Positions 7,900-28,481 of a stretch of DNA of 53,691 nucleotides are shown in pieces. Below the pieces are notes generated by a model that saw nothing but the letters and a program-made list of their open reading frames with translations, ran no database searches and had not been told where the DNA came from. Made by a program: the position numbers and the translations under genes. This stretch comes from Lophium mytilinum. Lineage: Eukaryota. Each line of letters starts with the position of its first letter. Within the stretch, counting starts at the first letter, position 1. The stretch covers positions 2,185,918 to 2,239,608 of the forward strand of contig MU004188.1 in NCBI GenBank assembly GCA_010093605.1. Direction: 5' to 3'.

Positions 7900-9217
7900 A
7901 TGACGACCACTACTACCCAAACCGAGACTGCCACGCCCCAGGTCGCTCCAATCAGATTCGAGACATCCGTAAACTACGATGAGGCTCCGGTAAATGGTTT
8001 CCCTGTTACAGTGGTCAGTTCAGCTTCGCTAATCGCTTAATGTAGTACAAATACGCCAACTACCTACCCCATTTCATCCCCGGTCTCCAACCACCCCTCC
8101 AAGAATTCGAACATCACGACCCCGGAGCACGAGCCGACCCATCCAAAGCCGCTCTCTTGAAAGCCTCCGGAATCACCGTCAACGAGATCACCCCTGCAAC
8201 TGGCACCGAAATCCACGGGATCCAGCTCAGCTCGCTCACCGACGCGCAAAAAGATGAACTCGCCCTCCTCGCTGCTGAGCGCGGCGTCGTCGTTTTCCGC
8301 GGTCAAGACTTTGCCGACATAGGCCCTGAACGACAACGCGCTTTCGGCGCGCATTTTGGCCCGCTGCATGTCCACCAGCATGGTGGTCACGTGAAGGACT
8401 TCCCGGAGCTGCTGCCCGTGTATCGTGATTTCAAGGCTGGGTCGGTGGACAATGAGATCAAGAATAATGTGAGTAGTATTAAATGGCATTCGGATATGAG
8501 CTATGAGATGTGAGTGTTTGATCTGTGGCGGAAGGGAGTGCCAGTTTGCTGATGTGAGGCGTAGCAATGGGATGGGAACGACGATCTTCTTCTCGCTTTC
8601 AACGCCGGTTTCCGGGGGTGATACGCTTTATCTCTCGACTACGGCGGCGTATAATGCGCTCTCTGAAACGTACAGAACGAGGTTGCATGGTCTGCAGGCG
8701 ACGCATTCTGGGTACCAGCAAGCGCAGGTCGCGGAGAATAAGGAGAGGTATATTCGCGAGCCAATTGAGACTGTGCATCCGATTGTGAGGACGCATCCTG
8801 TAAGCCCTGCCGTACTTTTTCTCGGGTTTTGAAGTCTTGAGTTCATAGCTCACGGATTCTTAGGCAACAGGAACTAAATCGCTCTACGTGAACCGACTCT
8901 ACACCCGCAGGATCGTGGGCTTGAAGGAGGAAGAGAGTGCAAGCATTCTGGATTTCCTCTACAACCATATCGAGCATGGCCAGGATTGGCATATTCGCGT
9001 GCACTGGACGCCGGGGACGGTCGTGGTTTACGATAATCGCGTGACGCAGCAGTAAGTGGTTCACGCTACATTTCTATAACCCTTTCCATGCAACGTAGGC
9101 TAACTTAGCGGGCCTAGTTCCGCTCTACGGGACTTTCAAGTCAAAGAAGGTGAGACGAGGAGGCATATGCTCCGCATCACGCCGCAGGGCGAGCGGCCGA
9201 GATTTGACGGCCCTTGA
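7900..9217 (+). CDS. Fe(II)/2-oxoglutarate dioxygenase, TauD/TfdA family (Jlp1/TauD-like sulfonate or sulfate-ester dioxygenase), 358 aa; introns 7990-8045, 8510-8564, 8800-8863, 9052-9117
   Basis: Spliced frame is 1077 nt. It contains GTEIHGIQL, AERGVVVFRGQ, the HxD motif KWHSDMSYE, GGDTL, HPIVRTHPATG, the distal His in DNRVTQHSA and the C-terminal RHMLRIT arginine. Confidence 0.93.
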
Positions 9218-9550
9218 GGCTTTGTGATCTTTCAAGCAATTGAATGAGCTATTAATACAAGTCGATAGATGCCGATGGTCCCTAAGAATCGTGTGCAAGT
9301 AAGGCGTGGTAATTCGAACTGACGTGTCTCCCCCGAGCGGAAGTGGCTCCGCAGTGAATGGGTTTTTGTTGCTGCTTGCATAAACTTTTCGCCATACTTC
9401 TTCGTTTCTCTACTAGTGCTTTCCTGAGTCACCATAACAAACCTCGCCCCCGTTTCTTAAGTCATTCAGCGCGTCTCAACACTCCTTTCCCGGCCTGCGC
9501 CCTCCAAACCCTACCTCAAGCTCATGCTAAATATGCAGCGTCTAGAAGGA

Positions 9551-10838
9551 ATGCCACCCGACTCCGAAACCCCATTCGCCTTCGCCGCACTCATCCTTGC
9601 CGATGCCGGAGTAAAGATCACTGCGGAGAAGCTGCTTGCGCTCGTTCGCGCAGCTGGCGTGGTGAAGAGTGATCCGGCTTGGGCGGTGCTATTCGCAAGG
9701 GCACTCATGGGGAAGACAGGACAAGATGCGAAGAAGATTCTATTGAAGTCGAAGATGGAGGCTGCCAAATTCTGGAGATTTTCGCACCATCACCGACATC
9801 CAAAGATACTCCCTGAATTCGCACTACCGAATACGTGCTTTAGGCGCTGGTCGTTATCGAAGCAACATGTAGAAGGATCGGAGAGGTCTCAGAAAGCCCG
9901 TCTGTGCGGCGAGACGAGGACTATCCATGATGACTAGTATGTACCCCTCGCCCGTCAATATAGTCTTTTCATTTCCTTTAAACCTAACGTTGTTACCAAC
10001 CAGCGCCCGAATCAACTTCCTCACTTTCCGCTGCGCCGCCATCAAGCTGAACCGGCTACCATCAGAGATTCGACTCCAAATCTTCCGCGAGGTCTTTCCA
10101 CGCCCCAGCACTACGATCAAATACTATGAACAATCTGGCTCCACCGTGATCACGGTACTCCACGGAAGCCAAGAATGGCGAGTTTTTCAGCGTCCCCCTT
10201 GGAGTTTCTCCCCCGACAGCCTGGTGTACGTCGCACAAAGTACTCCATCCCTCCCACTCGTATCCATGCCTGCCCATGTCCATCTTCACTCGCAGAATCT
10301 AGAATATCGGTTCCTCAGCAGATACAAGTATTGGCTAGACCCGGCAGCCGTTGGACAACTGGCGTATGAGGCCGCGGAGGTCATCTTCGCCCACGCTGTC
10401 TTCGTCTCTCCCTCCGATACCGACGCGCTGGTGTGGCTGGGGAATGAAGCGTGTTCTATGCATGCGAGGCACTTGATACTAGGCCACGGTGAACCCGATT
10501 CCTTGGTCGCCTTACGAGCAATTCTAGGCACAGGGCTTTCCAGGCTCCAAAACCTAAAGCGGGTGGATTTGCTCCACAACAAACGCTCTCAAAGAACACA
10601 GTACCAAGCAACTTCCCACTATGGTGTCCACCGGGAAATGTTTGACCTGGTCAAGGATCTGGTGAAGAGAGGGTTGGAGGTGAACTACGTCCCATTCATA
10701 CCGCCGGCAAGCTGCCAGTTCGACCGGCATTACGGGGGCAGGGGAGAAGACTACGAATGTCACGAAGGAGGACGGTGGAGCGACCAGGAATGGTACTGGA
10801 GATCTATGCTCTACCTTCAAGGGTTTGATGGGCAATAG
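9551..10838 (+). CDS. Chimeric hypothetical protein (~406 aa): N-terminal 60S acidic ribosomal protein P1-like domain plus an F-box/2EXR-like motif and unknown C-terminus; intron 9937-10003
   Basis: FAALILADAGVKITAEKLLALVRAAGV...DPAWAVLFARALMGK matches the P1 N-terminal domain. A GTATGT...CCTAAC...CAG intron removes the TAG at 9935-9937 and joins in frame (GAC TA|C GCC CGA) to the 9927-10838 ORF, which carries LNRLPSEIRLQIFREVF. The start could also be ATG 9524 or 9533. Confidence 0.75.
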
Positions 10839-26790: not shown

Positions 26791-26972
26791 GCCCCATAGT
26801 TCTAACAGCTGGATGAATTCCGATTCGTGCCACTTTGAACCTCGAAAACAGACATCCTCACAGATTGGGCGCCCAATTACAACGTGCGAGCTTCTCGTGC
26901 ATTCCCTATAGGCAACTTGAAACGCTCTCGGCCTGTCTCACCTTCCCGCACTATTACGAGTCAGCCATCACC

Positions 26973-28481
26973 ATGTCTTCGCGATCAAGCTTTGCACGTG
27001 GCCTAGCCCTTGTCGCCACGAGCTCGCTTGTTGCCGCTGGGCCGTGCGATCTGTACGCCACCGGCGGGACGCCTTGCATCGCCGCGCACAGCACCACTCG
27101 CGCCTTGTACAGCAGCTACACCGGCCCTCTCTACCAGGTGAAACGCGGCTCCGACAATACCACGACCAATATCGCGCCGCTATCCGCCGGCGGTGTCGCC
27201 GAGGCCGCCGCCCAAGACTCCTTCTGCGCCAGCACGACATGCCTTATCACCATCATTTACGACCAGTCGGGCCACGGGAATCATCTTACCCAAGCATCGG
27301 CCGGCGCCTTCAGTGGCCCGGAATCCAATGGTGCTGACAACTTGGCCAGCGCGACAGGCGCGCCCGTTACGCTGAACGGGCAGAAGGCGTACGGCGTCTT
27401 CATCCCCCCCGGCGCTGGCTACAGCAACAACGCCGCGAGTGGTACAGCTACAGGCGACGCGGCGGAGGGCATGTACTCCGTCCTTGACGGGACCCATTAC
27501 AATGCTGAATGCTGCTTCGACTATGGCAACGCCGAGGTCAGCAGTCACGATACGGGCAACGGCCACATGGAAGCCATCTACTTTGGCACCAACACCATCT
27601 GGGGCACCGGCTCCGGTAGCGGCCCATGGATCATGGCCGATCTCGAGAACGGCCTGTTCTCTGGCGCCAGCACTGGCAACAACCCCGACGACGCCTCCAT
27701 CTCCTCCCGCTTCGTGACTGCCGCTGTCAAGGGCGGCCCTAACAAGTGGGCAATCCGCGGCGCCAATGCTGTGTCGGGCGCGCTGTCGACGTACTACAAC
27801 GGTACGCGCCCAAATGCGTCTGGCTACAACCCGATGAGCAAAGAAGGCGCCATCATTCTCGGTATCGGCGGCGACAACAGCCCCAATGCCCAGGGCACCT
27901 TCTACGAGGGCGTCATGACCACCGGCTATCCGTCCGACGCCACCGAGAACTCGGTGCAGGCCAACATCGTCGCCGCCAAGTACGCCGTCACGTCGTTGAC
28001 TAGCGGCCCGGCCCTCACGGTTGGCTCCTCCATCTCGCTACGGGCCACCACGGCCGGCTACACGACCCGCTACCTCGCCCACACCGGCTCCACCGTCAAC
28101 ACGCAGGTGGTCTCGTCATCCAGCACCACCGCCCTCAAGCAGCAGGCCAGCTGGACGGTGCGCACCGGCCTGGGCAACAGCGCCTGCTTCTCGTTCGAGT
28201 CCAAGGACACGGCCGGCAGCTACATTCGCCACTCCGCCTTCCAGCTGCTGCTCAACGCCAACGACGGCACCAAGGCGTTTTACGAAGATGCCACCTTCTG
28301 CCCGCAGACCGGCCTCAACGGCCAGGGCAACTCGATCCGGTCCTGGAACTATCCCACCCGCTATTTCCGCCATTTCAACAACGTGGCCTTTGTCGCGAGC
28401 AACGGCGGTGTTGACGCGTTTGATGCCACCGCCTCGTTCAACGACGATGTGAGTTGGGTGCTCAGTACTGGCTTCGCTTGA
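26973..28481 (+). CDS. abfB: Secreted alpha-L-arabinofuranosidase B (GH54 catalytic domain + CBM42), 502 aa, intronless
   Basis: Signal peptide then GPCDLY...PCIAAHSTTRALY, CCFDYGNAE, GHMEAIYFG, WIMADLENGLFSG and GGDNS...GTFYEG. The C-terminal AbfB domain includes YIRH and RYFRH. Confidence 0.97.
   Translation: MSSRSSFARGLALVATSSLVAAGPCDLYATGGTPCIAAHSTTRALYSSYTGPLYQVKRGSDNTTTNIAPLSAGGVAEAAAQDSFCASTTCLITIIYDQSGHGNHLTQASAGAFSGPESNGADNLASATGAPVTLNGQKAYGVFIPPGAGYSNNAASGTATGDAAEGMYSVLDGTHYNAECCFDYGNAEVSSHDTGNGHMEAIYFGTNTIWGTGSGSGPWIMADLENGLFSGASTGNNPDDASISSRFVTAAVKGGPNKWAIRGANAVSGALSTYYNGTRPNASGYNPMSKEGAIILGIGGDNSPNAQGTFYEGVMTTGYPSDATENSVQANIVAAKYAVTSLTSGPALTVGSSISLRATTAGYTTRYLAHTGSTVNTQVVSSSSTTALKQQASWTVRTGLGNSACFSFESKDTAGSYIRHSAFQLLLNANDGTKAFYEDATFCPQTGLNGQGNSIRSWNYPTRYFRHFNNVAFVASNGGVDAFDATASFNDDVSWVLSTGFA

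Follow-up and report, generated by a model that had tools for sequence, protein, structure and literature searches.

P1 and P2, the stalk proteins, are commonly regarded as parts reserved for the ribosome, and a locus of the fungus Lophium mytilinum raises the question of whether the N-terminal head of P1 can serve elsewhere, attached to a different protein. The DNA analyzed here is a 53.7-kb stretch (the window), and all coordinates are positions of that whole stretch, with all features of the gene itself on the + strand. Left unspliced, the locus reads as two separate open reading frames (ORFs), 9551–9937 and 9873–10838, which an earlier note on this DNA had proposed to be fused by an intron into one protein, with a P1-like domain in front of an F-box-like part. 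Our analysis favors a real chimeric gene, in which a P1-derived head would act as a pairing module for a body resembling 2EXR/DUF7730 proteins, held on a tether of about 60 residues and away from the canonical stalk role, and we consider this reading evenly poised between right and wrong. The gene is a lineage-restricted one of a Dothideomycete close to Mytilinidion, with two exons and a predicted product of 406 amino acids (aa).

The first exon holds an open frame of 128 codons that runs into a TAG stop, and the last base of this stop is the first base of a predicted intron, 9937–10003 (Table 1). Removal of the intron turns TA|G into TA|C, a tyrosine codon, and reading continues in the frame of 10005–10835 (277 aa), giving a predicted spliced product of 128 + 1 + 277 = 406 aa. 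Every GT-AG intron of 40–299 nt that leaves the frame open from 9551 to 10838 was enumerated, and among the 31 found, 9937–10003 is the only one whose donor fits the consensus, whose CTRAY branch site is normally spaced (here CTAAC, 16 nt upstream of the 3′ end) and whose acceptor is CAG. The GC content of the intron is 42%, compared to 51–58% in the exons, and a similarly styled intron (GTAAGT...GCTAAC...TAG, ∼9053–9117) is found in the upstream TauD-family gene. The codon-usage score per codon is +0.27 for the head in frame, compared to −0.54 and −0.27 in the other two frames, +0.13 for exon 2 and −0.09 for the linker, which is still the best of the three frames there; eight Pfam-supported ORFs of the window, used as a reference, score from +0.11 to +0.52. 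Both exons thus carry an in-frame codon bias like that of bona fide genes of the window, which supports the gene model. In-frame ATGs at 9524 and 9533 are possible alternative starts, and the ATG at 9551 agrees with the start of the orthologue described below. Judged by these signals, a fusion across 9936/10004 is the best gene model, and the gene is predicted to be spliced and expressed accordingly.

The head, residues 1–66, is a P1-derived N-terminal domain, both by sequence and by predicted fold. In phmmer searches of the Protein Data Bank (PDB), residues 5–64 match yeast P1-alpha (4v6i_Bt, E = 4e-8; 5dge_p1, E = 6.8e-8), residues 5–53 match human P1 (2lbf_A, E = 6.2e-6) and residues 5–57 match wheat P1, with the wheat and human P1 chains spanning E-values from 1.5e-6 to 1.9e-5, while the match to archaeal aP1 is weak (E = 0.084). 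A profile of 150 non-fused P1 heads, which is partly circular as its rows had been found with the query, places ORF 9461–9934 at E = 3.6e-21 (71.8 bits). The next piece in this six-frame scan of the window stands at E = 0.11, and the scan found no other P1-like sequence in the 53.7 kb. The canonical GFGLFD or GLGLFD tail end is present in 28 of the 150 profile rows, and several of the rows are named “Large ribosomal subunit protein P1” in their source. A much broader search, with a profile of the orthologue and both window exons against 1.84 billion representatives, returned 174 proteins at E ≤ 1e-3. The best 150 of these 174 match the front of the profile only; most stop at or before position 70, the longest extends to 94, and the body is matched by none of these 150.

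The predicted structure agrees with this assignment. We modeled the head with AlphaFold2 (AF2) from a 52-row alignment, and the predicted local distance difference test (pLDDT) is 80–96 over residues 1–60, with helices at residues 7–19, 25–34, 42–51 and 58–76. When the model was compared to the PDB with Foldseek, the six best matches were all P1 N-terminal domains: human 2LBF and 4BEH, wheat, yeast and human ribosome models, and archaeal 3A1Y. The template modeling (TM) score by target is 0.43–0.73, and with the three ribosome models 48 residues superpose at a root-mean-square deviation of 1.3–1.4 Å; the E-values of 0.009–0.5 are as expected given the small size of the domain. Among the 15 positions that are near-invariant in P1 (invariant or ≥90% in the 52-row alignment), 14 are kept in the head, and the remaining one, Tyr11, is replaced with Phe.

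What follows the head is different from P1. The translation of exon 1 contains neither an Ala-rich hinge nor an acidic tail, there is no acidic C-terminal motif across the 406 aa, and two tail profiles, from 35 and from 7 tails, found nothing in or near 9551–10838 in six frames. Because the tail is absent, the head would be unable to recruit translation GTPases or tail-binding toxins, and no elongation factor is expected to be brought in through it. A piece of an alternative frame at 9673–9816 (...EEDSIEVEDGGCQILEIF..., EDGGCQILEIF) resembles the tail of a Lophium P1 paralogue and was considered as a relic acidic tail, but the tail profiles, run over six frames of the window, did not place it among their best matches, and it is regarded as chance. 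In place of the hinge, residues 67–128 form a basic linker that is rich in His, Arg and Lys rather than Ala, with the same character in the orthologue. Within the AF2 model, helix 4 extends to residue 76, the pLDDT drops to 47–55 from residue 71, and there is no secondary structure from residue 77, which suggests that the linker, about 60 residues, is probably disordered. The two species have three linker motifs in common: HRHPxILPxF, PNTxFRRWSxSK, which includes a site of the RRxS type, and TIHD, directly ahead of the junction.

The same architecture is found in one other protein, XP_033580599.1 of Mytilinidion resinicola (384 aa, gene BDZ99DRAFT_568776, P0003 in our alignments). NCBI lists it as an “uncharacterized protein” and UniRef as an “F-box domain-containing protein”, an automatic label that the Pfam scan did not reproduce. 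Word-index searches recovered it alone among 609 candidates with the exon 2 protein (near lengths), and alone among 880 candidates with the exon 1 protein (longer lengths); with residues 1–70 of exon 1, none of 21 candidates of near length was significant. Scans of metagenomes and metatranscriptomes for relatives gave 126 pattern matches for the exon 2 protein and 60 for the M. resinicola protein, none of them confirmed. The M. resinicola protein is its own cluster representative in a 90% collection. Eight of the best 150 of the 174 profile matches are longer than 200 aa, and six of these were examined as possible similar fusions and rejected: in five, what appears to be a merged gene model contains a canonical P1 that keeps its hinge and an acidic stretch or tail, and one is an apparent intron read-through.

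Head, linker and body of the M. resinicola protein are collinear with the exons of the window, at 66% identity for exon 1 and 67% for exon 2. The junction falls at the same position in both, with ...TIHDE-Y-ARINILTFRCAAVKLNRLPPEIRLQIF in M. resinicola and ...TIHDD-Y-ARINFLTFRCAAIKLNRLPSEIRLQIF in the predicted splice product of the window. The head is the best-conserved segment between the two species, with 49/66 residues identical and no gap columns, followed by exon 2 (167/251 identical, 28 gap columns) and the linker (35/61 identical, 4 gap columns), and its frame is intact, free of insertions and deletions in both. The earlier note had named a P1 pseudogene fragment as the alternative that would overturn the fusion. 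Since the head is the best-conserved and indel-free part while one-third of the body has changed, a decaying pseudogene fragment is unlikely, and it is unlikely that the head evolves as a dead fragment. All that the note had read from the sequence holds up: a P1-like domain over the first ∼65 residues, the missing hinge and acidic tail, two separate unspliced ORFs, and a canonical 67-nt intron that excises the stop and joins the exons in frame.

It is also possible that there is no fusion at all, and that the remnant of a P1 paralogue, or else a conserved long upstream ORF (128 codons), stands ahead of an independent 2EXR/DUF7730 gene that starts at the ATG at 9927. The M. resinicola gene model would then be a prediction artefact using the same splice by coincidence. 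The two ORFs are indeed separate when unspliced, the frame of exon 2 has this ATG of its own, the junction is without RNA evidence, the coding signal of the linker is weak, and typical 2EXR proteins start shortly ahead of the LPxEIR motif. In a dead fragment the frame would be expected to be gone, however, and the identities given above extend through head and linker with no more than 4 gap columns. The intron has canonical signals, the position and phase of the junction are shared, and the intron is lower in GC than the exons around it. A bicistronic arrangement with an 11-nt overlap would also be unusual in fungi, and we regard this explanation as improbable. The ATG at 9927 lies 11 nt ahead of the unspliced exon 1 stop and is a candidate start for a stand-alone body protein, made from an unspliced or internally initiated transcript.

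The body can be placed with less precision than the head. The motif KLNRLPSEIRLQIF is present in exon 2, in agreement with the LxxLPxEIRxQI-type motif that the earlier note had described at the opening of a part of ∼280 residues. The family name 2EXR refers to two ExR motifs. The 2EXR-like region contains LPSEIRLQIF, with EIR at 10065–10073 and a second ExR motif, EWR, at 10173–10181; these are residues 21–23 and 57–59 of the exon 2 protein, and the M. resinicola protein has EIR and ESR. In a Pfam scan at E ≤ 10, 2EXR (PF20150) is the only family found in both orthologues, at equivalent places, with E = 0.022 (16.3 bits) for the window and E = 0.0014 (20.2 bits) for M. resinicola. The same scan found no match to the F-box families PF00646, PF12937 and PF13013 in either orthologue. 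Likewise, the two-orthologue profile searched against the PDB at E ≤ 10 returned only P1 chains and chance PDX1 rows, with no F-box protein among them. The F-box-like label of the earlier note is not supported. An Atlas feature search, which uses a language model, gave a score of 0.96 for the body alone, with 180/256 features shared, although, by the tool's own figures, some 1% of shuffled proteins score as high as 0.95. The four named rows of that search, standing for 30 matches, are DUF7730 and/or 2EXR clusters from Ascomycota; scores with the whole orthologue were 0.88–0.89 and are treated as a lead only. Structure prediction adds little here, as the AF2 model of the body from a two-sequence alignment is unusable (pLDDT 36, predicted TM score 0.27), the Atlas model of the M. 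resinicola protein is poor (pLDDT 0.49), and its structure matches are all at TM < 0.5 by query. The body shares with 2EXR/DUF7730 proteins the LPxEIRxxIF start, a second ExR motif about 35 residues on and the Atlas likeness, and it differs from them in the scores of the family models; the clusters shown are not described with a P1 head. The body thus looks like the fast-evolving 2EXR/DUF7730 class of Ascomycota, with an LPxEIR start reminiscent of the F-box, and is neither a proven member of either family nor a demonstrable F-box.

The origin of the head is best approached from its closest free-standing relatives. The head is 75% identical to the head of its orthologue, while none of the 150 P1 heads exceeds 51% identity to it (47–51% for the closest). 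A tree of 152 rows pairs the two fused heads with full support, and by path the row closest to them is P0006 (1.57), a P1 of L. mytilinum with a Gly/Glu hinge and a GIFGLFD tail. Thr at position 7, after Glu6, is shared by the window head with 9/150 P1 rows, and eight of these nine have non-canonical hinges rich in Gly, Asp and Glu and tails of the MFDLFG or MFLLFD type. A maximum-likelihood tree was also built from 42 rows and 68 columns, comprising the 2 fused heads, the 28 rows ending in GFGLFD or GLGLFD, and 12 hand-picked divergent rows, with the other rows left out. Here the fused pair joins the divergent paralogues P0012 and P0154 (support 98/88), on a stem of 1.13 changes per site, compared to 0.40 between the orthologues. 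By the approximately unbiased test, a single clade of fused and divergent rows is compatible with the data (p = 0.51). These results are suggestive of descent from a divergent P1 paralogue subfamily and not from the housekeeping P1.

The divergent paralogues of Pezizomycotina share Thr7 with the fused head, both trees place them among the rows closest to it by path, and the source of one of them belongs to the order of M. resinicola. They differ in that they are free-standing proteins of 109–134 aa that keep hinge and tail, while the fused head sits on a long branch. In the 42-row tree this subfamily separates from the canonical GFGLFD-tailed P1s, with P0006 as an exception. The free-standing members that we noted are P0006, P0012, P0018, P0041, P0046, P0062, P0070, P0084, P0117, P0137 and P0154. 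Many have a Glu-Thr start to helix 1 and a hinge rich in Gly, Asp and Glu, with tails such as MFDLFG, MFLLFD, GIFGLFD and LLFD. The L. mytilinum protein KAF2494403.1, also named “Large ribosomal subunit protein P1” in UniRef, belongs to the same subfamily.

Residues that contact partners in human P1 give a view of what the head may bind, and human numbering was carried over through P0148, a metazoan-type P1 row whose residues agree with it. The human P1/P2 study of Lee et al. (2012) places Tyr11, Leu14, Ile15, Leu31, Ala34, Ala35 and Val37 of P1 at the interface (PMC3326305). It also reports that helix 1 needs its additional first turn, with Leu7, since truncation of this turn abolished the P1/P2 heterodimer, that helix 3 of P1 carries three exposed hydrophobic residues absent from P2, and that by modeling a hydrophobic cavity on P1 takes the loop between the P0 spine helices (PMC3326305). 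Both fused heads have Leu14, Ile15, Leu31, Ala34 and Ala35 along with Phe11, and position 37 is Val in the window and Met in M. resinicola. The human helix 3 residues Trp43 and Leu46 are kept as Trp44 and Leu47 of the window. Elsewhere residues have changed, given here for the window and M. resinicola in turn: Leu7, found in 104/150 P1 rows, is replaced with Thr and Met, Ala8 (Ala in 139/150) with Pro and Lys, the Val before helix 3 (109/150) with Ser and Gln, and the third exposed hydrophobic of helix 3, equivalent to human Phe42 (Ile in 122/150; window position 43), with Ala and Thr. A three-residue insertion, TGQ or TGR, stands ahead of helix 4 in the two fused heads. From this comparison, the folding core and a generic pairing surface appear to be kept, while several P1-specific contacts appear to be lost. 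Together with the long stem, this loss favors a changed partner over canonical stalk assembly, so the residues lean mildly against the latter. A complex prediction with two copies of residues 1–70 (score 0.14, mark 0.32) was not used.

We infer from sequence that the head was co-opted as a protein-pairing module, in which the buried helix 1/2 interface of P1 would be retained while the positions through which canonical P1 makes its specific contacts with P2 and P0 would have drifted. Most likely, the head would join the body either to another copy of itself or to a partner of the P1/P2 type, off the canonical stalk role. An analogy for this role comes from the dimerization domains that stand ahead of the F-box in some F-box proteins.

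A competing proposal, that of the earlier note, keeps the head on the ribosome, as a stalk-docking adaptor, decoy or dominant-negative component that pairs with P2 on a P0 spine helix, with the body replacing one P1 tail, for example as the substrate receptor of a ubiquitin ligase. The human P1/P2 interface residues are kept or conservatively changed (Phe11, Val/Met37), as are two of the three exposed hydrophobics of helix 3 (Trp, Leu). Free P1 depends on P2, and a long flexible linker would let the body hang off the stalk like a normal tail. At the extra turn, however, Leu7 and Ala8 are replaced differently in the two species (Thr-Pro and Met-Lys), and the replacements at the Phe42 equivalent and at the Val before helix 3 weigh in the same direction. 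The long stem branch suggests a change of function, and no F-box signal was found by hidden Markov model (HMM). We consider stalk docking rather doubtful.

Splicing itself could be the point of regulation. Spliced transcripts would give the fusion, and transcripts that retain the intron would give a free, tail-less P1-like protein of 128 aa that competes with P1 for P2 or P0 and so tunes the make-up of the stalk under some condition. The stop is made exactly by the first base of the intron and yields a clean 128-aa product, and intron retention is the commonest mode of alternative splicing in fungi. Such a competitor would meet the same changed contact residues as stalk docking, and a regulated dual output is highly improbable in our estimate. 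The most far-reaching version, which we think unlikely, would have the stalk sometimes carry a 2EXR/DUF7730 adaptor instead of a factor-recruiting tail, as a ribosome-resident substrate receptor or a switch of stalk composition that arose through capture of a P1-paralogue exon, with a competitor produced by intron retention.

Several observations weigh against a pairing module on a 2EXR/DUF7730-like body. Among the domain models that the earlier note had named, 2EXR was found, although both scores are below the curated threshold of 24.8 bits, while Ribosomal_60s (PF00428) has no match to exon 1 or to the M. resinicola protein, and the F-box none, at E ≤ 10; the P1 assignment by profile comes from our own set of P1 heads. 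Neither orthologue matches the DUF7730 HMM (PF24864) at E ≤ 10, and the placement of the body rests on this sub-threshold score and on language-model evidence. When sequencing runs were searched for words of the gene, no RNA run came up, and in neither species did transcripts turn up in support of the junction or of expression; one run, X1, which was guessed to be RNA, contains 0.12 of the sampled words. The M. resinicola gene model is an automatic annotation, the gene is known from two species, and the constraint on the head is read from one pairwise protein comparison. A 50% representative library returned neither the M. resinicola protein nor a full-length relative (0 matches below 1e-30), and since that protein was not returned, the coverage of its family in the library is incomplete. 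Trp44 and Leu47 would fit continued docking on P0, and the kept residues of the head double as its folding core, which makes them uninformative on the bound partner. The grouping with divergent paralogues comes from 68 columns and a long branch, and in the 152-row tree the nearest row, P0006, is another P1.

Compared to known systems, the head has the four-helix N-terminal domain and buried interface residues of P1 (RPLP1; yeast P1-alpha and P1-beta; 2LBF, 4BEH, 4V6I). P1 continues with an Ala/Gly/Pro hinge and a (D/E)DMGFGLFD tail, whereas the fused protein has ∼340 further residues in their place, and its head has replaced Leu7, Ala8 and the helix 3 Ile/Phe and fails PF00428. F-box proteins of the Fbw7/Cdc4/beta-TrCP type carry an N-terminal dimerization (D) domain. 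Their layout is analogous, as a small helical domain for pairing precedes an LPxEI-type motif and a body at the C-terminus, and the fused protein is unlike them in that it matches no F-box model, its pairing domain is of ribosomal origin, and a linker of ∼60 residues lies in between. A literature search, judged by titles and abstracts, found no description of such a P1-head fusion or of 2EXR/DUF7730 proteins. The protein has a new domain architecture, present in databases only as an uncharacterized protein, and it appears to be undescribed.

A conserved eukaryotic gene that keeps only the pairing head of P1, on an unrelated body, shows that this head is reusable as a portable module, and it offers a natural test of what the P1 head alone binds. 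The very large, wholly uncharacterized 2EXR/DUF7730 class of Ascomycota has in this protein its first member whose partner domain can be interpreted, and thereby an experimental handle. Should the head have kept its docking on the stalk, the fusion would be an unusual case of exon capture giving rise to a specialized ribosome component. The restricted distribution, with two species found, limits the weight of these points for now.

Table 1. Positions of the two exons, their parts and selected neighboring genes in the 53.7-kb window.
Feature	Position	Strand	Evidence or remark
Exon 1 (128 codons plus TA of the split Tyr codon)	9551–9936	+	Open frame from ATG 9551; collinear with M. resinicola residues 1–131, 66% identity
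P1-like head, aa 1–66, four-helix N-terminal domain	9551–9748	+	Sequence profile, AF2 fold, orthologue conservation
Basic linker, aa 67–128	9749–9936	+	Conserved motifs; AF2 without structure from aa 77
ATG in the exon 2 frame, within the end of exon 1	9927–9929	+	ORF 9873–10838 reads ...MMTSMYPSPVNIV...ARINFLTF
TAG stop, read only upon intron retention	9935–9937	+	G is the first intron base; a 128-aa tail-less P1-like peptide would result
Predicted intron, 67 nt, phase 2	9937–10003	+	GTATGT donor, CTAAC 9984–9988, CAG acceptor 10001–10003; junction peptide TIHDD-Y-ARIN (orthologue TIHDE-Y-ARIN)
Exon 2 (last Tyr base, 277 codons, TAG 10836–10838), 2EXR/DUF7730-like body	10004–10838	+	Translation, orthologue, Atlas likeness
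2EXR-like region, exon 2 protein (P0002) aa 16–89	10050–10271	+	Sub-threshold PF20150
19-aa in-frame insertion relative to the orthologue, AQSTPSLPLVSMPAHVHLH	10233–10289	+	Alignment gap
HET (heterokaryon incompatibility) domain ORF, 657 codons	23236–25206	−	Pfam PF06985, E = 2.5e-24
Alpha-L-arabinofuranosidase B gene	26817–28478	+	

The insertion in exon 2 has a low GC content at third codon positions (0.42) and a coding score of −0.19, and a second intron was considered there. The donor GTACGT at 10226, paired with the CAG at 10295, would give an intron of 70 nt that is out of frame, while the in-frame alternative from GTGTAC (10224–10295) would remove the conserved VYV; inspection by eye found no in-frame canonical intron able to excise the insertion. 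It is treated as an indel, which may be recent, or the gene model of the orthologue may skip it. Reads of run X1, which may be a DNA run, assemble on the gene into a single contig of 219 nt at 10006–10224, with no joint and a depth of 2.5, and this contig says nothing on splicing or expression. It begins 2 nt inside exon 2 and ends adjoining the GTACGT at 10226, a coincidence with splice-like sites that is treated as chance.

An unnamed database record of 62 aa, P0004, is identical to residues 4–65 of the head. The neighbors of the gene are ordinary Pezizomycotina genes, and it is flanked by a TauD-family gene and an MFS gene. Upstream are an alpha/beta hydrolase, a Sua5/YrdC protein, an MFS transporter and the TauD dioxygenase, and downstream are another MFS transporter, a protein with a fungal transcription-factor domain, a DUF1275 protein, a cupin, the HET-domain gene and the arabinofuranosidase.

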